Source: Malacoraja senta (lineage: Eukaryota). Taken from it: 64,000 bases of DNA. The DNA lies in the NCBI GenBank assembly GCA_038087875.1, contig CM075989.1, positions 22,074,001 to 22,138,000 of the forward strand, written 5' to 3'. A model generated the notes under the pieces. That model searched no databases and was not told where the DNA came from. It worked only from the letters and a program-made list of their open reading frames with translations. The position numbers were made by a program, and so were the translations under genes. Below, piece after piece: positions 5,551-63,510 of this stretch. Position 1 is the stretch's first letter. Every line of letters starts with the position of its first letter.

Positions 5551-5596
5551 TTTTGTTTTGTTTTTTTTTGCTGCCTGATAACACTCTGCCCGAGAT

Positions 5597-6008
5597 ATGG
5601 CAATGGTAGTTAGTACGTGGCGAGACCCGCAAGACGACGTGGCCGGAGCTCAAGTCACACAGCCACCTCCGCCTCAGCAAGGACCGCAACAGCCTTCCGG
5701 AGCACCCCTTACCCCGCAGACCCCAGGCCAACCTGGAGGTCCGGGCACGCCGGCCCAGTCCAACCAGCAGCCAAGCGAGAAACAGCAGCAGCATATCGAG
5801 TGTGTGGTGTGCGGGGACAAGTCAAGTGGCAAACATTACGGCCAGTTCACCTGCGAGGGCTGCAAGAGTTTCTTTAAAAGAAGTGTGCGCAGAAACTTGA
5901 CGTATACATGTCGTGCCAACAGGACCTGCCCAATAGACCAACACCATCGCAATCAGTGTCAGTACTGTCGCCTGAAAAAATGCCTGAAAGTCGGCATGAG
6001 ACGGGAAG
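5597..6008 (+). CDS. NR2F2: NR2F2 (COUP-TFII) coding exon 1: A/B region and two C4 zinc fingers
   Basis: [12 protein letters not shown]...[36 protein letters not shown]...CLKVGMRRE; donor G|GTATT at 6008/6009, phase 1. Confidence 0.97.
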
Positions 6009-6216
6009 GTATTGAGAATTAATTTATTTCAAATGTTTGAACCGCTCTTACCCGCCGACCTAGTTAAAAAAAAAAGAAGCCGAAATGTTTGATTCTATAA
6101 AGTTAAAATGGGCTACCATGCTTGCATGCCTCACTCAATTGCTACCGCCTGTCTGTGTAGTTTATGGTTGAGAAACTCAGTTAAGTGTTCTTGCAAATGT
6201 TATTTTTTGTTTTCAC

Positions 6217-6260
<44 letters not shown>

Positions 6261-6261
6261 C

Positions 6262-6293
<32 letters not shown>

Positions 6294-6367
6294 GGGGTGA
6301 GAGAGTGTGAGAGAGAGAGAGAGAAAGAGTGTGTGTGGGGAGAGAGAGAGAGAGAGAGAGAGAGAGT
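6217..6367. repeat. Compound (TG)n/(GA)n microsatellite in intron 1
   Basis: Seen directly. Confidence 0.95.
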
Positions 6368-6758
6368 GCTGAAAAATTATAAGTTGTAGAATAACCATAG
6401 AAAGCGTGTTTTGATTGTAATCTAATTTGATAAAATGTGCTAGGTCACACACGCAACCGCACGAGAAGAGAGGAGGGTGCTACTAATGCACCATGCAAGT
6501 TGGAGCAGTTTGCAAAGTCGAGATAGGAAAATAAATCAGCCATTGTTTTAAAATATGTAATCAGTTTTTACACGCGTTAGGGAAATGACATAGCAAAATT
6601 GCATTGCAGTGCTTGGCTTAGCATATGCAGTCGTGGTTTAAAATATGCACCATTGTGCTGCGGCATAGGTGAGATTTATTAAACAAAAAAAGCAGTGTCT
6701 GCGGCAGCTCTTGCATTTTTTGGGGGGTTGTATTGTGTGAAAAACTGTCTGAAAATGA

Positions 6759-7364
<606 letters not shown>

Positions 7365-8380
7365 TGATCTGTAATCAAAACAGCCATGATATCATATCAG
7401 AATGGAGATTCAGGCGAATATTCAGCGTCATTTTCCGTGCACTTAGAGTGCTGGCATACACTCTCCACATAATACCCCCTAATATTGAAATGGCTGGAAA
7501 AAAAGAGTCTTCATTTGCTGGAGCAAAATATAAGTTTAAAAATATGATGAAAACACTCAGTGAGCTTTTTAACCATTTGTAGTAATTCGTGTCATAAGCA
7601 ATTGCTGCATAATTCCCAACACATTGCATGGGAATGTACATTATTATCAAAAGAAAAATGCTGTGCGGTTGTAAATATTGAAGGAGAGTAAATTATTATA
7701 TATATATTTCATTTTTCGCGTGTTTTAGTTAGTCATTCCCATTTATATTGTGTTCAGAATTGCTGCACTTAAGTTATAATATTACCACAGCCGCTCATCT
7801 AGAGCTGGCATAATGCGTTCAAGGATTGATATCAGCAAACAGAAAAAAACAGTTTATGTGAGTAAGCGGTCCACAATCCCTTCCTTGTTGTGTCAGAGTG
7901 ATCTGGGGATCTAGAGGACTCCCTGGACCTTTTCAAGTGCAGGAGTCGTGACCCAAACTTCCTTTTTATATATATATATTCTTACTTCACACATAAAAAC
8001 GACGCTTTTCCAAAATGTCTTTTTTAACCAAACTAATCAAATGAAAGTGAACATCTAGTTAGAGAAAAACAATATTCAGGCCACTGAGCTTAAGTGAGGG
8101 TGACGTTTTGTGTGTTTGCTTTAAGTTAACACATGCCAGCTTTTATGAAGTAGTATTTTTCTTAGTCTTTTTTTATACTTGAATTACTAACCGACTTGGA
8201 AACACTTTTAAATTTTATGCGGTTTATTTTGTTTGTTCAGTCTACTTGATCCTACTCAACCAGGAGCAATCGATGACATTACCATTGCAGTTAATTTATT
8301 ACTATTTGTAAAATGTCAGGCCTGGTGTGCAACGAAGCAAGCTCACTGTTTTGTGAGCACTTTGGTGTTACACGTTGATG

Positions 8381-8382
<2 letters not shown>

Positions 8383-8429
<47 letters not shown>

Positions 8430-8444
8430 TAATATATATATATA

Positions 8445-8518
<74 letters not shown>
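8383..8518. repeat. Compound (TA)n/(TG)n/(CA)n microsatellite in intron 2
   Basis: Seen directly. Confidence 0.95.
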
Positions 8519-8782
8519 TGTAAATGTATACACTGCTCGCCAGTGCAGGCTAAATCTGGTTTAAGTTTACAAACGCCAAAAAGTATTATGTGAAATGTGG
8601 CTGTGAATGGTTGCTATATCTGTGCTTTGTGTTTTCTTTGATGCCTGTAATAATATGCGTCTGCTGGGCTGGGTTTCGGTATTGCAAGATGCAATGGCCA
8701 GGTCAGGTCATAACCTATGCTCTCTAATTAAAGGTCCCATGCTAGTGCGGGTGTCATATATTTAATCCTACACTTTTTCTAA

Positions 8783-9109
<327 letters not shown>

Positions 9110-14174: not shown

Positions 14175-14374
14175 NNNNNNNNNNNNNNNNNNNNNNNNNN
14201 NNNNNNNNNNNNNNNNNNNNNNNNNNNNNNNNNNNNNNNNNNNNNNNNNNNNNNNNNNNNNNNNNNNNNNNNNNNNNNNNNNNNNNNNNNNNNNNNNNNN
14301 NNNNNNNNNNNNNNNNNNNNNNNNNNNNNNNNNNNNNNNNNNNNNNNNNNNNNNNNNNNNNNNNNNNNNNNNNN
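14175..14374. other. Assembly gap (200 N)
   Basis: Run of N with a round length, so probably a placeholder. Confidence 1.
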
Positions 14375-15708: not shown

Positions 15709-15987
15709 GTTTGCTAAACATGTATTTACGTCACCTTCACAAGAAACATGTTGATGTTTAAGGATGCCACAATTTTATGGAAATAAATCATTGCGTAGTA
15801 AATATGCGATAGATACCTGCATAGGACCTGCATTCTTAGCAGTTGATGCCATTTAAATATATTAATTCCATTGAAGTTTGGAGTTGACACCACTGTGAGG
15901 TTGAAACCTCAAACAATGATGAAATGGACTACAGGAAGGGATAGGGAGTTTAGTAGCTTGATGTCAAGACAACAATCTATAAATGTT

Positions 15988-16109
15988 TAAGAAGGAACTG
16001 CAGATGCTGGAAAATCAAAGGTACACAAAAATGCTGGAGAAACTCAGCGGGTGCAGCAGCATCTATGGAGCGAAGGAAATAGGCAACGTTTCGGGCCGAA
16101 ACCCTTCTT
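15988..16109 (-). mobile_element. Penelope-like terminus (subfamily B) with 15-bp TSD
   Basis: Flanked by caatctataaatgtt at 15973-15987 and 16110-16124. Confidence 0.8.
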
Positions 16110-16149
16110 CAATCTATAAATGTTATCTGGGAACCAGGTTGGTTCACGC

Positions 16150-17419: not shown

Positions 17420-17715
17420 TAGAGTCATAAAGCGTGGAAACAGACCCTTCAGCCCAACTTGCCCACACAGCCTAACAGGTCCCATCTACACTAGTCCACC
17501 CTGCCTGCATTTGGCCCATATCCCTCTAAACCTGTCCTATCCATGTACCTGTCTAAATATTTCTGAAGCGTTGTGATAATACCTGCCTTCACTACCCCCT
17601 CCGGCAGCTCGTTCCATACACCCACCACCCTTTGTGTAAAAAAGTTATCCTTCAGGTTCCTATTAGATCTTTCCCTAGTCACCTTAAATCTACGTCCTCT
17701 GGTTCTTGATTCCTC
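17420..17715 (-). mobile_element. CR1-type LINE 3' fragment
   Basis: Minus ORF NFFTQRVVGVWNELPEGVVKAG...LDRYMDRTGLEGYG, the typical CR1 ORF2 C-terminus. Confidence 0.85.
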
Positions 17716-17716
17716 T

Positions 17717-18140
17717 AGATAGACACAAAATGCCGGAGTAACTCAGCGGGGCAGGCAGCATCTCTGGATAGAAGGAATGGGTGACGTTTCAGGTCGAGAC
17801 CCTTCTTTAGACTGAGAGTCAGGGGAGAGGGAACACACACAGAAATATGGAAGAGTATGGTGTGAAAACAAGAGATCCAAGAGGACGAAATTCAAGGAAC
17901 ATGTAGAATAGATCATTGTTAGCTAGCGGTAGGTAACAACGAGGTATACAAAGATAAAACGTAATCAGGAGGACAGTCAGACTGGTGGGAGAACTTGGAT
18001 GGGGAGGGATGGAGAGAGAGGAAAAGCAAGGGTTACGTAAAGTTAGAGAAGTCAATATTCATACCGCTGGGGTGTACGCTGCCCAAGTGAAACATGAGGT
18101 GCTGTTCCTCCAATGTGCATTGGGCCTCACTTTGACAGTG
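17717..18140 (-). mobile_element. Penelope-like element 3' end: GIY-YIG C-terminus, 3'UTR and hammerhead-motif terminus
   Basis: Minus strand reads HCQSEAQCTLEEQHLMFHLGSVHPSGMNIDFSNFT*, then a pyrimidine-rich UTR, then the recurrent terminal repeat. Confidence 0.8.
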
Positions 18141-18944
18141 ATTCCTCTATTGAAAATACACATCAATCGGTTGAAATAATGAATCTAAATATCATGGCAC
18201 TTGTTAAAAATTGGAACCATTCTGTTTGCAATCTCCTTTGAACGTTATATGGAGATATTTACAGTAGGCAAGTCACTGCCAATGTATTTCATTTGTGTTA
18301 ATTAGATATTATTCTCTTCCTTCCTTCTGTGAGTGTTTACATATTTTTTTAACATGTTGCCAGCACAAATTTTAATTATCCGTTCTGCATTGTGTGTTAC
18401 CATGCTGGTACGGCAGAATTTGTTTTCGAGAAAAAAATAAGGCAAGGCATAATTAAGATTTCTCAATGATTAAATATTTTGTATTAAGTGACTTACTTGT
18501 CTAATAGGAATAGGATACGACTGAAGCTGGGTGTTTTTGTAGTGTTGAATGCTCTACTTTTTTCCCACTACAAGGGAAATGTCATGATACATTGATTATA
18601 CTTCTGATCTAGTTTGAAGTTAAGAATCGAAGCTGTAATGTTGTAAATGCAATTTTTTTTTTGGTGACAGGTGAAAATAAACATAATGGAAGCAGTACAC
18701 ATCAAAAACAAATAAATAAACGTAGCCTTTTCCTTTTCTCCAGAGAGTCTGTCTGGCTCCAGCTTTTTGTGTCTATGTTCGGTGTAAACCAGCATCTGCA
18801 GTTCCTTCCTATCCACATCAATTCAAGTTGGGCAATCAAAATTGGATCAGGATCTATGTTAGAAAAAGGGGAAGTCCCATATAAAACTCTTTACCTCAGT
18901 TTGGTCATTAGGCCAGTCATACATTATACAAGCTTTAGAAAAAT

Positions 18945-20230: not shown

Positions 20231-21020
20231 CAACAGATTGACAGATGTGATACCAGAAGATCTGGAAATAGTACATCCATGCTTACCTTGTGGATAGACA
20301 AGGTTCTCATGTCACTTGTATAATGGAAAATCTCCGTCAGTTTCAATGGAGCTTCACCAACATGCAAGAACATGTTAGGTCATCCATTCAACAAAATTAT
20401 TAAAGCCGTTTGACTATAACCTTACCAACGGTAAATATATAGGCATGTGTAAGAAGGAGTGCCTGAAGAAGGGTCTCGACTCAAAACATCACCTATTCCT
20501 TTTCTCCAGAGATGCTGTCTGACCTGCTGAGTTACTCCAGCTTTTTTTCCTATCTTAAATATACAGGAGGTTTTGCAAGAACACTGGGATAATCACATTC
20601 ACTGAATGTTTTAAAGTGGATGATCCCACCACAAGATAAATGCCCATCAATCTATTGCAAGATTCATTGTGGCTAACCTTTCCAAGTCAACTGGTTATAA
20701 TGTTATTACTTTGTGGGAAGGATCCCTTTGATTATCATTGAGTAATAGTTGAAACTGTTGAGTGTAGTTACTCATTTGACTGGTTTGGAAACTCTCCAAA
20801 ATAGTCATCATGTTTTGTTACGATAATGTGATGGGTTCAATATTGCCCATGGCGATTGCTGGAAGCACTAGCAAGGCAAATCATATTCAAACGTGGAGAT
20901 ATCAACCAGGGCTGTATACCAATGTGGTAGCAATAGAGCTGCTCGTAAATTATTGAAATGCGTTATAGTAACAAAATTTACCGACCAGGTTAAAGGTCAA
21001 GTAGGAAAGAAAATCTTGTA

Positions 21021-21452
21021 TTGACACAAAATGTTGGAGTAACTCAACGGGTCTAGCAGCATCTCTGGAGAAAGTGGACAAGTGACGTTTCGGGTAGGGA
21101 CCCCTCTTCAAACTGATTGTAGTAGGGAGAGCGTTAACTTTAAAAGTCCATTAACTAGCTTCACATTCCACAACTATGTATCCCTCTTGATACTCACACC
21201 CGTCTCTATCCAACAATCTGCCTATCAGGGAACCTCCTCGCCAGAGATCATCTGTTGCCAACACTGATTTGTGTAGCTTGTTCTTATTTCCATTTTTTTC
21301 CTGCTCTCCCTTCTACAATCAGTCTGAAGAAGGGTCCCGACCCGGAATGTCACTTATAGATTGTATCCAGAGATGCTGCCTGACCCGCTGAGTTGCACCA
21401 CCATTTTGTGTCTATCTTTGGTGTAAACCAGCATCTGCAGTTCCTTTTAATG
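21021..21452. mobile_element. Inverted pair of Penelope-like termini with spacer
   Basis: 21021-21115 is the reverse complement of 21320-21415. Confidence 0.8.
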
Positions 21453-22139
21453 ACATTAAGAAAATATGGTAATCGTTCTGTTCTGGCCTATATTAGCCCA
21501 ACTAATGTGGTTGATTCTCAACTGTGGACTGGAACAGCCTAGAAAGACTTACCAGGTGAGCTTCAAGGTAAAGGATCTCATTGAGTTCGATGTGAGTGCA
21601 GAATGGATATTTGTGATGTTCATGGGAGTGCAGGAATGAAACCCTAGTAAGTTAATAGGGGTGCAAGAACCAGGGCCCCAGTAGAAGCATATGAGCAGGA
21701 GTCTAATGTGAGCATGGCAATTCACATTTGGTGATCTCCCCCTGGTAATTTGTCCCTGGGGAACAAAGGTGGATGGGGGAGGAGATGATGTCGGTTGCTT
21801 GCCGACCAAGGAAGGCGATGGCTGGAGGCCCTGCAGCAGCCTGGGGCTCGCCTGGATCGGGCTCCGATTAGAACAACTGGAATGTGGACTTGACTTGGAA
21901 AATGGCGCCTAAACTTGGCACCTCTTGCATGCGGGCTCAGTAGATTATTTTTCTACAACTGCTAATCGGGGATGGTATGGCAATACTCTACTGGACTATT
22001 TGGAAGAAAGGAATTTCACTGAGCGTTTGCACTTCACACATGTGACAATAAAGCATTGTTGAACCATTGAAATTTCAAATAATTGGGATCTCCAAACAAA
22101 TGTGGAGTGCATTATCGGAGTTTTATTTTAATCCATTTT

Positions 22140-31289: not shown

Positions 31290-31945
31290 TTTAAACATGA
31301 CAATTTTCAAGCAGTTCAAAAAAGTTCTTCGTCACTTCATTAAATGTTTGCTTTGCTGATGACGCCCATGTGCTGAATGTTGAATAATTCTTTTCATTAA
31401 AAAAAAATTAATGCACATGTCGATTGTTTTATGACAAGTTTTGTCATTTTGTTTTCCGGTAGATACTTTTTGAGGTAAATTAGTTGCTTAATTTTCTTTT
31501 GAGCATCTCATCTATGTTATTTATCAACATTGATGTCTGTCTTTTCAATTCTAGAATTTTGTCTTAAAAGAATGATAAATTAATTGCATGGGAGTAAATA
31601 ATTTTAAGTGAAAAATATATTTATATAATATAAGTGAAAAATATATCACTAGCATTCTTTTAAGACAAAATGCTATAATTGAAAAGGCAGATATCAATGT
31701 TGATGAATAGCATAGATGAGACGCAATAAAGAAAATTAACCAATTAGTTTATCACGGAAGGTAGCTACCAGAAAATTTCCTTAATTGTGTCCGAAAACAA
31801 TTGATACATGAAATGAATTTAAAAAAATTACAAATAATTATTCAGCTTTCGGCATGTGGGTCAGTGGCAGGGCAAGAATTTAAAGAAGTGATCAAATATG
31901 TTTTTGAACTGCTGGAGACACTGAGGAAAATTGTGATGTTTTTAG
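31290..31945. repeat. Long imperfect inverted repeat (foldback)
   Basis: Arms of about 280 bp ending at 31574 and starting at 31653; the inner ~70 bp differ at only 7 positions. Confidence 0.9.
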
Positions 31946-32289: not shown

Positions 32290-32540
32290 GCATCTCCTGG
32301 TTGCTAACCAATTCAACTCTCTGTCCCATTGCCTGTCCCATTCCCATTCTGTCCTGGGCCTCCTCCACTGTCAGAGTGAGGCCCAGCGCAAATTGGAGGA
32401 ACAGCACCTCACATTTCTCTTGGGCAGCTTACAACCCAGCAGTATGAACGTTGAATCCTCTAATTTTAAGTAACTCCTACTAACACTAGCCTCCTCTCTC
32501 CCGTTGATCCATTCCTCCACCCTGGTCATATAACCAGTTC
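32290..32540 (+). mobile_element. Penelope-like GIY-YIG endonuclease C-terminal remnant
   Basis: VANQFNS...SVLGLLHCQSEAQRKLEEQHLTFLLGSLQPSSMNVESSNFK*, fitting the PLE pattern VAxHFN...LE..I..LG.L.P.G.N. Confidence 0.75.
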
Positions 32541-34337: not shown

Positions 34338-34372
34338 GTGTCTGAAGAAGGGTTTCGGCCCGAAACGTTACC
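34338..34372 (+). ncRNA. Minimal type I hammerhead ribozyme motif (representative copy)
   Basis: CUGAnGA at 34342-34348, helix II with UUCG loop, GAAA, palindromic ACGU helix III, UH site. Confidence 0.65.
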
Positions 34373-34436
34373 TATTTCCTTCGCTCCATAGATGCTGCTG
34401 CACCCGCTGAGTTTCTCCAGCATTTTTGTGTACCTT
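34340..34436 (+). mobile_element. Penelope-like terminus (subfamily B) with intact hammerhead core
   Basis: CTGAAGA-A-GGGT-TTCG-GCCC-GAAACGTT. Confidence 0.8.
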
Positions 34437-35657: not shown

Positions 35658-35734
35658 AACCACCCTATTAGTACCTCATTAGAAACAGTTCCACTTTTCC
35701 ACTCTTGTGGTGGCCAAGATGAACAGAGTACTGG

Positions 35735-35826
35735 CGAAGAAGGGTATCGACCCAAAACGTCACCCACCCCTTCTCTTCAGAGATGCTGCCTGTCCCGCTG
35801 AGTTACTCCACCACTTTGTGTCTATC
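35735..35826 (+). mobile_element. Penelope-like terminus
   Basis: gaagaagggtatcgacccaaaacgtcacc...gttactcca. Confidence 0.75.
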
Positions 35827-35894
35827 CAAGGTGAATAGAGATCTTCATTGGTGTTTCTGTTGTTGCTTGATTTGCTCTGAGGCAATACAGCTGA

Positions 35895-38572: not shown

Positions 38573-38944
38573 GTCTATCGGAGGATGAGAAACTTCTGTA
38601 ACCCCAAGTTTTTGAATTTGATTACTCCAGTCACTCTGGGCTGTAGGGTTGGGTTCTTTACTTTTCTTTGATCACAGGCAATCATAGTACCAGGTAACTC
38701 AACATGCAGTCTCCACATGCCCATCAGGGGACTTCCTGCACTACACAAAATAAGTCCTCATTTTAACAATTGATGGTAGGAACCAAAATTAACGTGGGGC
38801 GAGATTGAATAACCAATAATCTTATGCAATGATAATAATATAATTAGTAGTCGTAAAATTATAACTAGAGCAATAATATATTGCATAGTATTATTATAAA
38901 TCTTACAGAAATAAATGCAATACAATAAACTAAGATTACACTTC

Positions 38945-39061
38945 GTGTTTAAGAAGGAAATGCAGATGTCTGAAGAAGGGTTTCATCCCGAAACGTTGCC
39001 TATTTCCTTCGCTCCATAGATGCTGCTGCACCCGCTGAGTTTCTCCAGCCCTTTTGTCTAC
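38945..39061. mobile_element. Short inverted Penelope-like insertion with 15-bp TSD
   Basis: ctaagattacacttc at 38930-38944 and 39062-39076. Confidence 0.85.
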
Positions 39062-39102
39062 CTAAGATTACACTTCCATAGATATCTACAATGGGAGATT
39101 TG

Positions 39103-40944: not shown

Positions 40945-42600
40945 GGAAAACACACACCTCCAGATTCAGGGACAATTTCTTCCCAGCTGTTATCAAACAA
41001 CTGACCCATCCTCCCAACAACTAGAGAGCAGTCCTGAGCTACTATCTGCCTCATTGGAGACCCTCAGGCTATCTTTAATCGGTCTTCACTGGACTTTATC
41101 TTCCACTAAATGTTATTCCCTTTATCCTGCATTGGTACACATTTGGAAAGTGGTGAAATCATTGGACAAAGTCAGCATGGATTTACGAAAGGTAAATCGT
41201 GTCTGACGAATCTTATAGAATTTTTCGAGGATGTAACTAGTAGAGTGGATAGGGGAGAACCAGTGGATGTGTTGTATCTGGACTTTCAGAAGGCTTTCGA
41301 CAAGGTACCACATAAGAGATTAGGATACAAGCTTAAATCACACGGTATTGGGGGTTCAGTATTGATGTGGATAGAGAACTGGCTGGCAAACAGGAAGCAA
41401 AGAGTAGGAGTAAACGGGTCCTTTTCACAATGGCAGGCAGTGACTAGTGGGGTACCGCAAGGCTCAGTGCTGGGACCCCAGCTATTTACAATTTATATTA
41501 ATGATCTGGACAAGGGAATTGAAAGCAACATCTCCAAGTTTGCGGATGACACTAAGCTGGGGGGCAGTGTTAGCTGTGAGGAGGATGCTAGGAGACTGCA
41601 AGGTGACTTGGATAGGCTGGGGGAGTGGGCAAATGTTTGGCAGATGCAGTATAATGTGGATAAATGTGAGGTTATCCACTTTGGTGGCAAAAACGGGAAG
41701 GCAGACTATTATCTAAATGGTGGCCGATTAGGAAATGGGGAGGTGCAGCGAGACCTGGGTGTCATGGTACACCAGTCATTGAAAGTAGGCATGCAGGTGC
41801 AGCAGGCAGTGAAGAAAGCGAATGGTATGTTGGCCTTCATAGCAAGAGGATTTGAGTATAGGAGCAGGGAGGTTCTACTGCAGTTGTACAGGGTCTTGGT
41901 GAGACCACACCTGGAGTATTGCGTACAGTTTTGGTCTCCAAATCTGAGGAAGGACATTATAGCCATAGAGGGAGTGCAGAGAAGGTTCACCAGACTGATT
42001 CCTGGGATGTCAGGACTTTCATATGAAGAAAGACTGGATAGACTTGGCTTATACTCGCTAGAATTTAGGAGATTGAGAGGGGATCTTATAGAAACGTACA
42101 AAATTCTTATGGGGTTGGACAGGCTAGATGCAGGAAGATTGTTCCCGATGTTGGGGAAGTCCAGGACAAGGGGTCACAGCTTAAGGATAAGGGGGAAATC
42201 CTTTAAGACCGAGATGAGGAAAAACTTTTTCACACAGAGAGTGGTGAATCTCTGGAACTCTCTGCCACAGAGGGTAGTTGACGCCAGTTCATTGGCTATA
42301 TTTAAGAGGGAGTTAGATGTGGCCCTTGTGGCTAAAGGGATCAGGGGGTATGGAGAGAAGGCAGGTACGGGATACTGAGTTCGATGATCAGCCATGATCA
42401 TATTGAATGGCGGTGCAGGCTCGAAGGGCCGAATGGCCTACTCCTGCACCTATTTTCTATGTATCTATGTATGTATCTATGTACACTGTGGATGGCTCCT
42501 TTTTAATCATGTATAGTCTTTCCGCTGACTGATTAGCACACAACACAAGCTTTTCACTGTACTTCGGTACACGTGACAATAAACTAAACTAAACTAAATA
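40945..42600 (+). mobile_element. Rex1/Babar-type 3' fragment split by the CR1 insertion
   Basis: 40945-41140 and 42481-42600 rejoin to match the uninterrupted copies at about 23940 and 44845. Confidence 0.75.
41141..42480 (+). mobile_element. Young 5'-truncated CR1 LINE with open reverse transcriptase frame to 42378
   Basis: QHGFTKGKSCLTNL, YLDFQKAFDKVPH, GVPQGSVLGP, KFADDTKL and FFTQRVVNLWNSLP with no stops over about 410 codons; 3'UTR and short tandem tail. Confidence 0.95.
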
Positions 42601-42603
42601 ATA

Positions 42604-42831
42604 TGTTTAAGAAAGAACTGCAGATGCTGGAAAAATCGTAGGTAGACAAAAAATGCTGGAGAAACTCAGCGGGTGAGGCAGCATCTATGGTGAGAAGAAA
42701 TAGGCGACGTTTCAGGTCAAGGCCCTTCTTCAGACAGTCTTAAGAAGGGCCTCGACCCGAAACATTGCCTATTCCTTATCTCAACAGATGCTGGATCACC
42801 CGCTGAGTTTCTCCAGCATTTTTTGTCTACC
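42604..42831. mobile_element. Palindromic Penelope-like insertion with 15-bp TSD
   Basis: ctaaactaaataata at 42589-42603 and 42832-42846. Confidence 0.85.
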
Positions 42832-44844
42832 CTAAACTAAATAATAGATCAGTTTTCCAGTCTTATTGAACATATTCCAGTCTTATCCTGTTGGAATCTA
42901 TGGCTGTAAAATTTAATCTGTTACTTTATTTGAATTTTTTTCCTATCATTTAATTCCATTGTTTCCTACTTAATGCACCTAACTTTGGTTGTGAGTGAGA
43001 CATGATGTGGGCTGTGGCTACTCCCATGATTGTTTCATCGTTGCATGGATCAGAGATTGGAAATTACATAGCTTGAGACGATGACAAAATCCTTCTCCTC
43101 TTTCCAATGTTACAGCTTCCTTTCGAAATTACTTCCATATATTTATGTATGTCGAGTCGATTTGGGATTAACATGTTATCTGTAATAAACAAGTTGATAC
43201 CTGGCAAACGTTCATGCAATCGCTCCATATCATTTTCGGTATTAACTATAATCTCTCAATTGGCATGGAATAATACAAGTTAACAATTAATTTATTTACA
43301 GCAGCCAATAATTGAAGCTTGCCACATCTATCTTGAGATTTGGAGGTGCTGGAAGCTTCTTGACCTCCACCCTACTTGCTCAAACCTTCTTTCTCTCTCT
43401 GGAAGACAAGATGCACACTCTCACCTCAACTCCACTGTAACAGCTCTCCAGAGAGACCAACTTTCTTTCTCCTGTTCCTGACTGTCAGGACTGATTATCT
43501 TATTACACCATCTATCGGAGTAAATGGTTCCCTCCTGAGTCTTGCTGCCAGCACTGACCAGAGACAGTACCTCACCTAACTCCATGAAGCTACCTTAGTT
43601 GACTCTCTGGAGGGAATAAGCTTTCTTTCTCCTCATTAGCTCTGCTAAGCACTCTACCTAGTGGAAGTGATGTTTCCCCATTGTGAGCGGTGATTGACAA
43701 AAAAAAAAATGCTACTCTAGGTAACTCCCTTGAAGGGACAATTATTCCCCTCCTCATTAACCCTCTCCCACCTAGTGTTTCTTCATGCGATTACTGTCCC
43801 CGAATCTTCAAACGATGCGCTCAGAAGTACTGAGCAAATCAGTATTCCCAAAATGTCACGTTTTATGCACCCCACAGACATATTCTAATGATGAAATTGC
43901 CACATAATTGATTATAAATATTACAAGGCTAGAGCAACATGATGGCTTCTAGTCCTGCTTTGAAAAAATTATGAGATGGCCAATTTCACCCAGCCTAAGT
44001 GAGATGAGGTTAACCCATAGACGACAATATCTAGACAGAAATAATTAGCTGGCTTCAACTTTGGCACTGACTTAAGCCGATAATATTTGCTGCAGTACTA
44101 ATATTCTTCTATGTACCACATTACAAGTCTATGTTAGGATTTCAACTTTTGATGGATAATGTATAGTTAATTTTAATTAAAGTGGATGAAATAAGGCTTG
44201 GATGCTGCACCGAGGCTCAATCACACGAATACCAAAACCCTGACCCTGCATCGTTGTGCCATCCTCTGTGTTAAATCATTCAGCTTAAATCCGTTATAAT
44301 ACCTCTCTCCAACTCACCACAGGTTTCTGACTCGTCAAAAAGAAACCAATTCAGGATACTAGTAAAGGAGCATATTGTAACAATGCAATGAAGACAGGTT
44401 TTACAGTCTGTTTCAGTTGCTTAAATCCCATTTAATTAAAGATTAAGTGCCCACGTTTGATTTTTCGCCAAGTTGTGCTCTTCCTCACTGCCTCTCAGTT
44501 GGGGCACAGTGGCGTGCGTTCCAAGTGGCAACTCTTCACGTGCGAGCCCTGACATTGATTGGCATGCTATTTTGCCAAGAGGGCACCACAGCCGAGGACA
44601 CTCGTTTCCTCATTTTAAAAGCTGCATGTCGCTAATTAGCTGAGACTTACTTTGCATGCAACGTGCTGGAAAAAAAAATTAAAGTTCTAGCCACCGCATT
44701 GTCACCCAGGTGAAGTTTCATTTGTTTCACCCGTCAGTTACCGGAAAGGTCGCAGGGTAGCAGCCAACTGCAGAAACCTTGGCCAATTTGTACCTTCTGC
44801 AATCCAGGGGCACTGAAGAAATGGAATCCACCTGCTGCTGACAT

Positions 44845-45766: not shown

Positions 45767-46125
45767 AGTTTAGTTTAGTTTAGTTTAGCGATACAGCGCG
45801 GAAACAGGCCCTTCAACCCACCGCGTACGTACTGACCAGCGATCCCCGCACATTAACTCTATCCTACACACACTAGGGACAATTTACAATTTTACAGAAG
45901 CCAATTAACCTACATACCTTAGGTACACAAAAATGCTGGAGAAACTCAGCGGGTGCAGCAGCACCCGCTGAGTTTCTCCAGCATTTTTGTGTACCTTCGA
46001 TTTTCCAGCATCTGCAGTTCCTTCTTTAACAACCTACATACCTTGGAGTGTGGGAGGAAACTGGAGCTCCTGGGGAGAACCTACTCAGGTCACAGGGAGA
46101 AGGTACAAATGCTATATAGACAACA
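45767..46125 (-). mobile_element. HE1-type SINE interrupted by a Penelope-like palindrome
   Basis: SINE sequence resumes after the insert at 45921-46030. Confidence 0.85.
45921..46030. mobile_element. Short palindromic Penelope-like insertion with 14-bp TSD
   Basis: aacctacatacctt at 45907-45920 and 46031-46044. Confidence 0.85.
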
Positions 46126-46294: not shown

Positions 46295-46442
46295 AAGGAC
46301 ACAAAGTGCTGGAAAAATTCAACGGACCATACAGCATCAACATGGACTTATCCATGTTCTCCAGAGATGCTGCCTGACCCGCTGAGTTACTCCAGCAATT
46401 TATGTCCTTTTGTGTAATCCAGCATCTGCAGTTCCTTGTTTC
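46295..46442. mobile_element. Penelope-like inverted terminus pair, degenerate
   Basis: Recurrent terminal motif in both orientations. Confidence 0.7.
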
Positions 46443-55370: not shown

Positions 55371-55639
55371 TGTTTTGACTCTAAACATTGTGAGAAGCGT
55401 CTTGACCCGAAACGTCACCCATTCCTTCTCTCCAGAGATGCTGCTTTTTGTGTCTATATTCAGTTTAAACCAGCATCTGCAGTTCCTTCTTACACACTGT
55501 GAGATGCATGGAGGTTTGGAAGGAGATTATTTATTGTGTTTATGGGTTCCAACAAAGACGAAAACTCCAATCTGCTCTGCTTGTGGTCACTCAGAAGACC
55601 CTCACTCAATAAAAACATATCTGGATTGGATTAAGATTT

Positions 55640-55972
55640 GGGAGATACACCATGGAAACAGGTCGTTCAGCCCAACTGAGTCCAAGCTAAACCATTGATC
55701 ACCCATTCACACTAGTTCCACGTTATCCCACTTTTGCATCCACTCCCTACACATTAGGGGCAATTTACAGATGTCAATTACCAAAAGGTCAATTAACCTA
55801 CAAACCTGCACATCTTTAGGATGTGGGAGGAGACCGCAGCATCCAGAGGCAAACCCAAGCGGTCACAGGGAGAACATGCAAATTTCACACAGACAGAACT
55901 CAAAGTCAGGATCAAACCCAAGTCTCTGGGACTGTGAGGCCGCAGCTCTCCAGCTGCACCACTCTGCCACCC
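55640..55972 (-). mobile_element. HE1-type SINE, diverged
   Basis: Similar to the other copies. Confidence 0.8.
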
Positions 55973-56166
55973 ACTGCCTAAAGCTCTGACAAAAGGACTT
56001 TGGGTTGACCTATACTCAACTTTTGCGGGTGACGTTCTTTGTAATATTAAACTAATTAATAGTGGAGTATTGTTCATAAGGCTGCACTGTTGTCCTTGTT
56101 CTTCCCATTGAATCTATGTGAATGATGGTAGCACACACACACACTGAGGATGACATTGGCTCTGGA

Positions 56167-56470
56167 GGGCAGCACAGTGGTGCAGCAGTGGCAGAGTTAC
56201 TCTCCCGCAAGAGACCCGGATTCGATTCCGACCAGGGGTGTTGTCTGTACGGAGTTTGTACGTTCTCCCTGTGACCGCGTGGGTTTTCTACGGGAGCTCC
56301 GGTTTTACCCCACATTGCAAAAAAAGTGTGGGTTTGTAGGTTAATTGGTTTCTGTCAATTGTCCCTAGACTGTGGGATAGAACTAGTGTATGGGTGATCG
56401 TGGTCGGTGTGGACTCGCTGGGCCGAAGGGCCTGTTTCGGCCTTGTATCTATAGACTCTAAACTAAACCA
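56167..56470 (+). mobile_element. HE1-type SINE
   Basis: A and B boxes, core and tail. Confidence 0.88.
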
Positions 56471-56732
56471 AAATCATAGAGCTATTGCCTATAACCCAAC
56501 AACATGGGTTCAGTCCTACTGTTTAATGTGTGGGAAGGAACTGCAGTTGTTGGTTTACATTGAAGATAGACACAAACTCCTAGAGTAACTAAGCAGGACA
56601 AGCAACATCTCTGGATAGAAGGAATGGGTGACTCCATTACTTGGGTCTGTCTACTATTTACTGTTGTCTGTTAGCAGATTCTCTCTGTGACTGTGTATGA
56701 GTTCTAGGTTAAACTAAGATAAAACATATGGC

Positions 56733-56917
56733 GTTTAAGAAGGAACTGCAGATGCTGGAAAATCGAAGGTAGACAAAAGTGCTGGAGAAACTCAGCGGGT
56801 GCAGCAGCATCTATGGAGCGAAGGAAATAGGCAACGTTTCGGCCTGAGAAGTTGCCTATTTCCTTCGCTCCATAGATGCTGCTGCACCCGCTGAGTTATC
56901 CAGCACTTTTGTCTACC
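56733..56917. mobile_element. Young palindromic Penelope-like insertion (subfamily B) with 14-bp TSD
   Basis: Near-perfect arms; ataaaacatatggc at 56719-56732 and 56918-56931. Confidence 0.9.
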
Positions 56918-57542
56918 ATAAAACATATGGCAATGTGTAAGACTGAATAGGTGCAGCATGACATTTTTTGGCAGCTTTGAGGAAGATCCTATAAAAGAGA
57001 GAAACATTTCCATGACTTTGTCATTATTTGAGCATCATTGCTTTAAATGGAGGAGGCCTGTTACATTTCAACCTGCTGCTTCATTATCAATCTGCCCACA
57101 TCAGAAATCTGAAAATGCAGAGATCATGATTATCCATGAGGGAAAAGTGGAAATAAACTTCAACCTCAGCTTCCGGACAATAAACCGCTCGGATTACACC
57201 TTCTTCTCAATTAGCAGCTTTCATGCAAATCCAGACAGGGTCAACCATTTCCCCCGTGACACTGACTACCTGCCTTGACTGTTGAATGCATGCCGATGCT
57301 GGGTTTAGATATAATGCTGCCTTCGTGCCTGGACGCTATGACTCACAACACATTACGTCTGTGTGCCAGCCAAATATGATACGAACTGCTGATGAGGGTC
57401 TGAGGTTAACATTGTAGTATTCAGTCATTCCTTTTAGCTTTCAATTAAACTGATGATCAAATATGTTTTTTTTTATTAAAAGGACACCTATCTATTTCGT
57501 TTCAAGGCCTTTTTTTTCAAAACTATTGTTTTGAAAAATAAA

Positions 57543-58203
57543 TGTGTCGGAAGGAACGGCAGATGTCGGTTCACACCGAAGATAGACACAAAACGCTGGA
57601 GTAACTTCGCAGGACAGGCAGCATCTCTGGATCTTCTTCAGACTGAAGAAGGGTCTAGACCTGAAATGTCACCCATTCCTTCTATCCGGAGTGTGGCCTG
57701 GTGGCGCAGCGGTAGAGCTGCTGCCTTACAGCGCTTGCAGCCTGCGCCAGGGTACGATCCTGACTACAGGTGCTGTGTGTACAGAGTTTGTACGTTCTCT
57801 CCGTGACCGCGTGGGTTTTCTCCGAGATCTTCGGTTTCCTCCCACACTCCAAAGACGTACAGGTTTGTAGGTTAATTGGCTCTGTGCAAATTGTCCCTAG
57901 TGCGTGTAGGATGGTGTTAATGTGTGGGGATCGTTGGTCGGCGCGGACTCAGTGGATCGAAGGGCCCGTTTCTGTGCTGTATCTCTAAACTAAACTAATA
58001 TATTTCTAATTTACATAAATAACCAAAGTCCGCCTATTGAGACATTCATGTTCGTAAAGCATGGTGAAATCATCTCTCACAGTAGGGCCTGTTTCTGTGC
58101 TGCATCTCTCACAGTAGGGCCTCTTTCAGTTTATCTAAACTAAACTAAACTGAAAAGATGTCGCCTGTCCCGCTGAGTCACTCCAACATTTTGTGTCTAT
58201 CTT
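57543..58203. mobile_element. Penelope-like palindrome split by a later SINE insertion
   Basis: The right arm stops at about 57690 and resumes at about 58156 (agatgtcgcctgtcccgctgag). Confidence 0.75.
57695..57998 (+). mobile_element. HE1-type SINE
   Basis: A and B boxes, core and tail. Confidence 0.9.
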
Positions 58204-58817
58204 CATTTTATAAACGAAACTTTTTTTGAAAAAAATCATTTATTTTTGACATTCTGCAACATTCCTAAATGGTAGAAGCAAGACAGCTGATCTGTGAACC
58301 ACACACTATCAATCCACAGAAAGAAACTAATTTTTCAATTATCCAGCAGCAGTGTTACTCTACCCCGCTGTGAGATAAGACAGGGTTAGCAATTTTCAGT
58401 TTAATGATGGGATACCATTATTAAAGCAAAGTTCCCAATGAAGTGTTGTTTATTTTTAAAGCATTCATGATGATAATTATACCTATTACAATCTGTAAAG
58501 TTATAATGTGTGCAGAACATCACCGAGCTGCACCATTTCATGATATTACTTAAAGCAGGTACGGTTAATTCACACAGAAAAAAAACCCACAAAAGAAAAA
58601 CAATATTTGAACTCCTTGAAAAGTCCGTTCTAAAAATTTGAAATACTGCCAAACCGACGAACACTACCCAGTAGATTATTGTTTGTATTATCTTGGGCAA
58701 CGATATGATAAAATCTCATAAAACAATTATTTTAGCACAATTACATTCCCTTCATTCCTTCAACCTGAGTAGAAGCAAACATATATGCGATGGAGGTAGC
58801 TAGTTTTGATTTTATGT

Positions 58818-59050
58818 AAAGGAAGGAACTGCGGATGCTGGTTCACACCGAAGATGGACACAAAATGCTGGAGTAACTCAGCGGGACAGGCAGCATCTCT
58901 GGAGCGAAGGAATGGGTGACATTTCAGGTCAAGACCCTTCTTCAGATCTGAAGGTCTGAAGAAGGGTCTCGACCCAAAACGTTACCCATTCCTTCCATCC
59001 AGAGATGCTGCCTGTCCCGCTGAGTTACTCCAGCATTTTGTGTCCATCTT
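58818..59050. mobile_element. Palindromic Penelope-like insertion (subfamily A)
   Basis: Inverted arms of about 95 bp meeting at 58945-58955; imperfect flanking duplication tttg(a/c)ttttatgt. Confidence 0.88.
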
Positions 59051-59644
59051 TGCTTTTATGTGTCCCATAATAAATTGGATCAAATCAACAAGGCTGATTT
59101 ATCAATATAGATTACAAATCATTGGATCTTAACCAATTAATTGATCATTGGAGAATGACAACTTGTTTGCAATTTATACAAATCGCACATGGAGTCTTGA
59201 TTTTCTTCCAATGTGTCATTTTAGGCTGGAGGGTTTTGTGGACCTTAACATTGAACAAGGTCAGAGGTTACTTTCATATTTGACACGTACATTTCCGACA
59301 TACAGTCACAGGGCACTACACTTTCAATTTAATTGCCGCCACTATTGTATGACATGGATATGGTATTATTCCAGATTGAGGTCACTTCCAGACAATAATA
59401 CAAAACAATTGTTCTTATCATATCATGGTTTAATTCCATGAAGCTCTCAGATGTAACTAACTGCACCACCGTGGTGCTGAAACTTGTTGAAACTGGTGTT
59501 AAAATAGTTTGTGGCTGGTTTTAGCTTTGAGTCAAGAGTTTCAGTCAAGAGTTAATGAACCACATTCGAACTTCCGCAAAGTGTGGTACAGCAACGATGT
59601 TTACTTGAAACAATCGTTGAGTAAATATATTTTATGCTTCCACA

Positions 59645-61689: not shown

Positions 61690-62140
61690 TGTTGGCTTGA
61701 GACCATGATCTAGGCTGACACTTCACATAATGTGTAGATTCTGGTTTACATCGAAGATAGACACAAGATGCTGGAGTAACTCAGCAGGGCAGGCAGCATC
61801 AAGGTATGGGTGTTGTTTCGGGTCGAAACTATGGAATCTATGGGGTTTGTGTCTGATTATGGGTTATGAGAATGAAGAAGGGTCCCAACCCGAAACATCA
61901 CCCATTCCTTCCCTCCAGAGATGCTGCCTGTCCCGCTGAGTTACTCCAGCATTTTGTGTCTAACTTCAGTGTAATACTGAGGGACAGCAGCACTGCCAGA
62001 GAACCTGTTATTGAATGCAATAGATCCCATGGTGCTATTTAATAAAGAGAGTGGTGTGTTCTCTACGACCATAATTAATCTCTTAATCAACATTGGCAGA
62101 ATAGATGATTCTGGTCATTAACCTGATTGCTATTTGTTGA
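61690..62140 (+). mobile_element. Ancient Deu-domain SINE (SacSINE1/AmnSINE1-like) split by a Penelope-like palindrome (about 61735-61963)
   Basis: tctaggctgacacttca|gtgtaatactgaggga...agatcccatggtgctattt...ctggtcatta resembles the recalled Deu-domain consensus. Confidence 0.6.
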
Positions 62141-63014: not shown

Positions 63015-63510
63015 ATAGATAGACACAAAGTGCTGGAGTAACTCAGCGGGTCAGGCAGCATCTCTGGAGAAAAGGAATAGGTGATGCTACGGGTCGACAC
63101 AATTCTTCAGACTAAGGGGTAAAGGGAAACGATAGGTAGTGATATAGAGATATACAGAACAAAGGAATGAAAGATATGCAAAAAGTAACAATGATCAAGG
63201 AAAGGTGGAGCCCACAATGGTCCATTGTTGGCTCTGGGCTAGGTGATGACGAGTTATCCAGACAGTGAAACTCAACAGGATGACAGTGAAAGTAGTACGA
63301 CAACTAGGATGGGGGAGGGACAGAGAGAGAGAGGGGATGCAAGGGTTACTCGGAGTTAATAAATCATATTCATTTTGCTGGGTTGTAAGCACCGAAGCGA
63401 AAGGTGAGGCGCTGTTCGTTCAATTTGCATTTGGCCTCACTCTGACATTGGAGGGGGCCCAGGACAGAAAGGTCAGTGTGGGAATGGGAAGGGGAGTTAA
63501 AGTGTTTGTC
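63015..63510 (-). mobile_element. Penelope-like element 3' end (GIY-YIG remnant, UTR and terminus)
   Basis: Minus strand reads HFNSPSHSHTDLSVLGPLQCQSEAKCKLNEQRLTFRFG, followed by the UTR and terminal repeat. Confidence 0.8.

Follow-up and report, generated by a model that had tools for sequence, protein, structure and literature searches.

Inserts in the window

The window, a 64-kb stretch of Malacoraja senta DNA on contig CM075989.1, contains a COUP-TF-like nuclear receptor gene, named from a reading of its translation, with three exons at 5582-9109. The DNA after these exons is repeat-rich, and the inserts described here lie 7-55 kb downstream. The window also holds an assembly gap of 200 N (14175-14374) and an AT-rich 126-nt inverted repeat (31452-31775) that is 83% complementary, unrelated to the Penelope-like element (PLE) arm and possibly a non-autonomous DNA transposon. 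A 422-codon stop-free frame at 41110-42378, about 210 nt before the insert at 42589, matches RVT_1 (E 7.8e-25) and is presumably the 3' fragment of a CR1-like LINE.

About 40 copies of a short PLE arm occur in the 64-kb window. Five inserts flanked by target site duplications (TSDs), listed in an earlier note on this DNA, are the youngest of these. The one at 56719-56931 is composed as follows:

56719-56732, unstranded: left copy of the 14-bp TSD, an exact match to 56918-56931
56733-56767, minus strand: 35-nt PLE tail on the left arm, between two inferred reverse transcriptase (RT) start sites (alignment, sequence)
56768-56842, minus strand: left arm, the 3' end of the pLTR, 5'-truncated inside hammerhead stem II (alignment)
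56836-56842, unstranded: apex, a short stretch common to both arms in the self-complementary hammerhead stem II region (sequence, BLAST arm overlap)
56836-56917, plus strand: right arm, the same pLTR end without the tail, ending GTCTACC (alignment)
56918-56931, unstranded: right copy of the TSD, an exact match to the left copy

The right and left arms are identical in 65 of the 66 columns compared, and the sequence they have in common at the apex would represent a microhomology join. The remaining inserts and copies to which we refer are these:

38930-39076, unstranded: TSD-flanked; a 24-nt inverted tail stub (38945-38968) plus a tail-less arm that begins 2 nt ahead of the hammerhead core
42589-42846, unstranded: TSD-flanked 228-nt palindrome (42604-42831); a tailed and a tail-less arm, both reaching the hammerhead start, with one central base
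45907-46044, unstranded: 110-nt palindrome between TSDs; the right arm carries the tail, and the apex falls ~50 nt downstream of the hammerhead start
15973-16124, minus strand: TSD-flanked; one arm with tail, its truncation point 1-3 nt inside the hammerhead core
58805-59061, unstranded: older 231-nt palindrome; 13-bp TSD (1 mismatch), a single tail and, at the apex, a duplicated stretch of 8 nt
20432-20567, unstranded: older; short inverted tail stub (by eye) plus a tail-less arm, 12-bp TSD (1 mismatch), arms non-overlapping
34340-34434, plus strand: young single tail-less arm; intact minimal hammerhead core, no clear TSD
35714-35840, plus strand: older single tail-less arm; 15-bp TSD (2 mismatches)
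17707-18149, minus strand: longer single tail-less copy of 421 nt (17718-18138); exact 11-bp TSD; endonuclease C-terminal remnant, then pLTR, then hammerhead
63017-63500, minus strand: second long copy, tail-less, with the pLTR and a remnant of the endonuclease C-terminus; its upstream limit is approximate
32297-32470, plus strand: stop-free remnant of the C-terminus of a PLE GIY-YIG endonuclease, which served as protein query

Five near-identical young copies (15973, 34340, 38930, 45907 and 56719) measure 95-185 nt and have five different layouts, while the old copies at 57549 and 55393 show internal deletions. The earlier note had described palindromic inserts, which is accurate for 42589, 45907 and 56719 but not for 38930, where the tail stub and the other arm have no sequence in common. 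It had also proposed that the inserts would form dsRNA if transcribed. Folding prediction agrees for the insert at 56719-56931, in which 56733-56917 is predicted to fold as a long hairpin (z -20.7, with 0 of 200 shuffles as good), and the inserts at 45907, 56719, 42589 and 58805 all have predicted long hairpins of -71 to -182 kcal/mol. At 38930 the proposal fails, as 38945-39061 folds at only -24.4 kcal/mol and is not a hairpin. Among the sequencing runs listed, 23 contained part of 55500-58500, and no RNA run was among them.

Identity of the arms

The sense strand of the arm starts with a minimal type I hammerhead motif, consisting of CUGAAGA, an extra A and a 4-bp stem II that opens with G-C, followed by GAAA, a palindromic CG and UC or UU. 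Taken together, stem II and a further helix formed between the tail and the arm core show 90% pairing, compared with 27-45% for slid partners, with weak covariation in the helices. A search of Rfam returned no family at gathering score.

Both long copies (17718-18138, and 63017 onward) belong to an older subfamily. Upstream, they continue across some 210-330 nt of pLTR and take in the end of an ORF, which supplies the C-terminal 30-55 residues of the endonuclease. There is a third remnant at 32297-32470. These coding remnants were located by motif search of six frames. An exhaustive search with the 58-residue remnant at 32297-32470 found 54 protein homologues at E ≤ 0.001, which include proteins from a skate, a stingray and the whale shark; a word-indexed protein search with the same remnant returned no match. 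Pfam GIY-YIG matches were weak and occurred in 4 of 12 scanned homologues, and the remnant itself had no Pfam match. One homologue, P0029, has RT and GIY-YIG look-alikes. The CX2-5CxxC linker before GIY-YIG, a region absent from the window, is present in P0029, P0034, P0039 and P0013, and PMC8557442 gives such a linker for Neptune and Nematis. Judging by this motif in the homologues, the parent element is probably of Neptune type.

Because the hammerhead arm is accompanied by long copies that run into an ORF remnant and by homologues with GIY-YIG and RT features, we regard the parent as an endonuclease-bearing PLE. On this sequence evidence, the inserts appear to be its severely 5'-truncated ends. 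A Penelope-like origin, as the earlier note had it, is supported by the hammerhead arm, the long copies and the elasmobranch homologues, and its suggestion of very short abortive insertions is supported by the truncated arms, the long copies and the homologues. The link of the young subfamily to an ORF is indirect because the window has no long copy of it and its arm is 77-79% identical to the older long copies. The mini-inserts themselves carry no ORF. An insert at 21021-21457 (437 nt, two arms, degraded TSD at 21007/21458), whose arms reach different lengths into the upstream pLTR, is intermediate between the minis and the long copies.

Two skate proteins, P0004 and P0013, end in a PLE endonuclease C-terminus (one, for example, is named neuromedin-U receptor 1); either these are gene models that have absorbed PLE fragments or the exonisation is real. 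A 20-nt arm pattern was absent from viral contigs (0 matches) and occurred 7 times in metagenome contigs and 3 times in prokaryote genomes; these matches were treated as chance because none extended beyond 20-32 nt.

Target site duplications and stagger

All five TSDs of the earlier note proved exact: 38930/39062 (15 bp), 42589/42832 (15), 45907/46031 (14), 56719/56918 (14) and 15973/16110 (15). To place these among the other copies, flank pairs were scored for 24 inserts with boundaries taken from alignments, using 552 mismatched flank pairs as the control. Scores of at least 9 were found in 9 inserts, 8 in 4 and lower in 11, whereas mismatched pairs scored at least 9 in 0 of 552 cases and 8 in 2 of 552. 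The five original inserts scored 14-15. Additional TSD-flanked copies emerged from the same search at 58805/59049, 17707/18139, 20432/20556 and 35714/35826. In two-arm inserts, a single TSD brackets both arms.

Between 1 and 4 bases at the TSD ends in some inserts also match the element, so that the TSD lengths may include element bases. The stagger read from the sequence is 14 nt at 56719, 15 at 42589, 13-15 at 38930, 13-14 at 45907 and 9-15 at 15973. At the tailed end, at least 3 TSD bases match the element terminus in 4 inserts (15984-15987, 58815-58817, 56527-56529 and 55491-55496). Such matches hint at short pairing between primer and template in vivo; the start site is called non-homologous in vitro in PMC11167929.

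The motif TAAACTAA is found at the tail-less end of 3 of the 5 young TSD-flanked inserts (38926, 42580-42590 and 56710). Only 1.1% of the window lies within 12 nt of this motif, which was picked post hoc, after the data had been seen. Its adjacency may reflect a bias for the (TAAAC)n tails of other repeats.

Tails and 3' ends

The 3' ends of the arms are bimodal. BLAST gave 40 hits: 18 of them stop within arm positions 81-99 and 20 within 111-125, none stops at 100-110, and the other 2 are cut short. The gap between the two 3' ends corresponds to the tail of 35-36 nt, somewhat longer than the ~30 nt given in the earlier note, which was right that only one arm carries it in 38930, 42589, 45907 and 56719. 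In the same four inserts the alignment also upheld its placement of the tail-less end at GTCTAC(C)/GTGTACC(T).

The window has 15 two-arm inserts, all arranged head to head with both 3' ends touching the TSDs. The tail is present on exactly one arm in 11 of the 12 that could be scored (those at 20.4, 21.0, 33.8, 38.9, 40.0, 42.6, 45.9, 46.3, 56.5, 56.7 and 58.8 kb), and none lacks it on both sides. The twelfth, at 61.7/61.9 kb (61733/61873), is ambiguous, with about 10 tail-like bases on its second arm. Three inserts (57.6, 61.0/61.4 and 63.9 kb) were left unscored, as their second arm is cut by another insertion. Counting the ambiguous insert against the pattern, one tail per insert departs from an even chance of a tail on each arm (p = 0.003), with tail and arm calls in old copies scored by eye.

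Single arms of both kinds carry TSDs, the tailed kind at 15973 and the tail-less kind at 17707 and 35714. Because tailed and tail-less single arms each carry a TSD of their own, we take both ends to be priming ends. Partner arms are mutual closest matches (rank 1-2) in 5 of 8 pairs, third in 1 and far lower in 2 old pairs.

Apexes and 5' ends

No two apexes are the same, and the joins show microhomology or added bases. The apex lies in stem II at 56.8 kb and ~50 nt downstream of the hammerhead start at 45.9 kb, consists of one central base at 42.7 kb and has an 8-nt duplicated stretch at 58.9 kb. The arms do not overlap at all at 38.9 and 20.4 kb.

The 5' ends are more regular. They fall at -2 to +3 of the first hammerhead core base in 18 of 41 arms, while 6 arms run upstream and 17 end further downstream. 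Relative to a uniform model, this hot spot has p of about 5e-9, with the 18 arms coming from 15 inserts and 4-5 of them having no TSD or partner fixing the end. The 5' ends were read from the capped-reference column, with the left arm at 33.8 kb corrected by eye; automatic calls with long references were confounded by the pyrimidine run of the partner arm. In the insert at 46.3 kb, the right arm (46354-46440) begins either at the point where hammerhead cleavage is predicted or 1 nt beyond it (+28), which is a single case.

In each of the four long references, the hammerhead start is immediately preceded by a pyrimidine tract and YAG. This fits a 3' splice site, but an initiator, an RT pause or a non-autonomous RNA of short length would fit as well. 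A spliced form with the end of the ORF joined to the hammerhead start was not seen by eye in the long copies. The Penelope intron of D. virilis is described as ending at the 5' end of helix I (PMC4209133) and as lying 46 bp after the start site (PMC2377424).

A model for integration

The anatomy to be explained comprises PLE identity, two fixed 3' ends, head-to-head arms, one tail, a stagger of 13-15 nt and varied apexes. In vitro, the PLE protein of an anole nicks the two strands, extends each of them and begins RT at two internal sites, one at either boundary of the tail (PMC11167929). The same source found no difference in start site between the strands, product length follows the RNA 5' end and the protein is a predicted dimer. 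When this in vitro reaction is joined to the anatomy of the inserts, twin priming is their simplest account, and we consider it the probable one: both nicks of a staggered cut of 13-15 nt would prime RT, and the two cDNAs would be end-joined anew at each insertion.

We infer the following steps from nicking to joining. An RT-GIY-YIG protein would nick both strands about 14 nt apart, and each 3'-OH would prime RT at its own internal site of the element RNA, which is the tail end for one and a position 35-36 nt upstream for the other. Both cDNAs would halt early, mostly just 5' of the hammerhead core, and their free 3' ends would be joined through short microhomology or by end-joining with a few added bases. 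Fill-in would then yield a palindrome with a TSD. Priming from a single nick would leave a single arm, with or without the tail, and early stalling of the tail-primed cDNA would leave a tail stub without a hairpin, as in 38930 and 20432. The hairpins would be by-products, and we assign them no function. This evidence comes from one 64-kb window, and several observations count against twin priming. The stubs at 38930 and 20432 could be later deletions in one arm, for which a 4-nt direct repeat would serve at 38930. The ambiguous insert at 61733/61873 may have tail sequence on both arms. Partner arms are mutual closest matches in no more than 5 of 8 pairs, and their similarity fits fold-back equally well.

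Fold-back is the weaker of the two mechanisms, and we judge it rather unlikely. In this alternative, which is close to a model in PMC3846280, one cDNA (or antisense RNA) turns at a short palindrome and copies itself, and an endonuclease cut removes the second tail, so that one tail per insert follows naturally. The apexes at 56836, 45954 and 57632 do lie on short self-complementary stretches, and partner arms have subfamily variants in common in 5 of 8 pairs. Palindromic junctions are taken as self-priming in PMC3846280, and the tail is attributed to endonuclease resolution in PMC8557442. However, arms without common sequence (38930 and 20432) would need a later deletion ending at the apex, and the tail-less single arms with TSDs (17707 and 35714) mark that end as a start site. 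Both ends of the tail are RT start sites in vitro (PMC11167929), and the added or duplicated apex bases at 42589 and 58805 resemble end-joining of two ends. The fold-back origin put forward in the earlier note therefore loses ground on the two inserts whose arms have nothing in common and on the tail-less single arms with their own TSD.

A non-autonomous palindromic master, whose transcript the PLE enzyme would copy in full and whose hairpin would thus be inherited rather than rebuilt, seems improbable. In its favour, the apexes of five inserts (42589, 58805, 33.8 kb, 40.0 kb and 57.6 kb) group at the hammerhead start, sizes of 212-231 nt recur and no young copy reaches upstream of the hammerhead start. 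Yet every apex has its own details, and each of the five young copies is laid out differently. On the same grounds, namely five anatomies among five young copies and an apex that differs every time, the palindromic or MITE-like non-autonomous family of the earlier note is not supported. It is possible that a short single-arm non-autonomous RNA served as the template, which is compatible with twin priming. Finally, a true MITE derived from a cut-and-paste DNA transposon, or two unrelated neighbouring insertions, would suit the small size, long inverted repeats and high density but is highly implausible given termini that are offset by 35-36 nt and are not inverted repeats, a sequence identified as the pLTR of a retroelement and connected to what remains of a PLE ORF, and one TSD around both arms in units of 110-231 nt.

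Returning to twin priming, it leaves one regularity unexplained, namely the 18 of 41 arms that stop at the hammerhead start. We offer tentatively, as less likely than not, that the inserts are pairs of strong-stop cDNAs. One PLE dimer might hold one RNA, with the RT sites 35-36 nt apart and the nicks ~14 nt apart, start on the 5' pLTR copy and extend the two cDNAs as far as a discrete 5' end of the RNA, which could be a start or processing site at the pyrimidine tract and YAG. This would give one tail and palindromes of ~131 + 96 nt; 42604-42831, for comparison, measures 228 nt. If this reading is true, the later half of PLE integration, which is still unsolved, would be captured in the genome as snapshots numbering in the thousands.

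The origin of the inverted ends and one-sided tail of PLEs is stated to be unresolved in PMC8557442 and PMC11167929. Tiny, fully resolved and TSD-bounded, the inserts (15 with two arms in 64 kb) offer a test bed for PLE integration, in which simple counts made across an elasmobranch assembly can separate twin priming, fold-back and master-copy models. Annotation can mistake palindromes of this kind for MITEs, and if transcribed they would supply abundant hairpin RNA. The element is ordinary, but its inserts record, in a compact form that can be counted, a step of PLE integration that is still unsolved.

Comparison with known systems

A mechanistic parallel is twin priming in L1, where a second nick primes a second cDNA and the inverted segment is joined by microhomology within a single TSD, likewise as proposed here. 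L1 differs in priming at the poly(A) end and a random internal site, resulting in non-overlapping parts, whereas two fixed sites and usually overlapping arms are found here. In searches of the open-access literature, we found neither a twin-priming reading for PLEs nor a description of these elasmobranch minis.

The inserts have three features of endonuclease-bearing PLEs: a minimal hammerhead motif in the pLTR, the optional 30-40 bp tail at one end (here 35-36 nt) and an inverted 5'-truncated copy by the 5' end with a TSD around the unit. They do not qualify as MITEs, with 35-36 unpaired nt at one terminus, no inverted repeat at 38930, and young copies of 95-185 nt in five layouts rather than of uniform size and structure. 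Nor are they non-LTR retrozymes, as the arms are head to head or single and a tandem scan found no head-to-tail array.

An inverted pLTR, a one-sided tail of 30-40 bp and a TSD are already published PLE anatomy. Insertions of endonuclease-bearing PLEs described in PMC3846280 and PMC8557442 have the same truncated copy plus inverted truncated copy, tail at one end and single TSD, but here the unit is 110-231 nt without an ORF, some arms do not overlap and the TSD is 13-15 bp rather than the 8-10 bp of the rotifer cases in these sources. The minimal hammerheads of metazoan PLE pLTRs (PMC4209133) have the same core, the extra base before stem II, G10.1-C11.1 and a palindromic 15.2-16.2. Relative to those, the predicted ribozyme here has a helix I of only 2 bp in the DNA context and, in the young subfamily, a GUU cleavage triplet. 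That source also describes Schistosoma hammerhead pairs on opposite strands, 100-700 bp apart.

Non-LTR retrozymes (10.64898/2026.07.22.740005) are likewise short, non-coding PLE-derived units with hammerheads, although theirs form head-to-tail tandem arrays while the units here are dispersed and head to head. Poseidon of Anolis (PAc; PMC11167929) likewise has two internal RT start sites bounding the tail, nicking and extension of both strands, a hammerhead just upstream and AT-rich targets. The main text of that paper describes neither inverted arms nor TSDs, and the family here looks Neptune-type.
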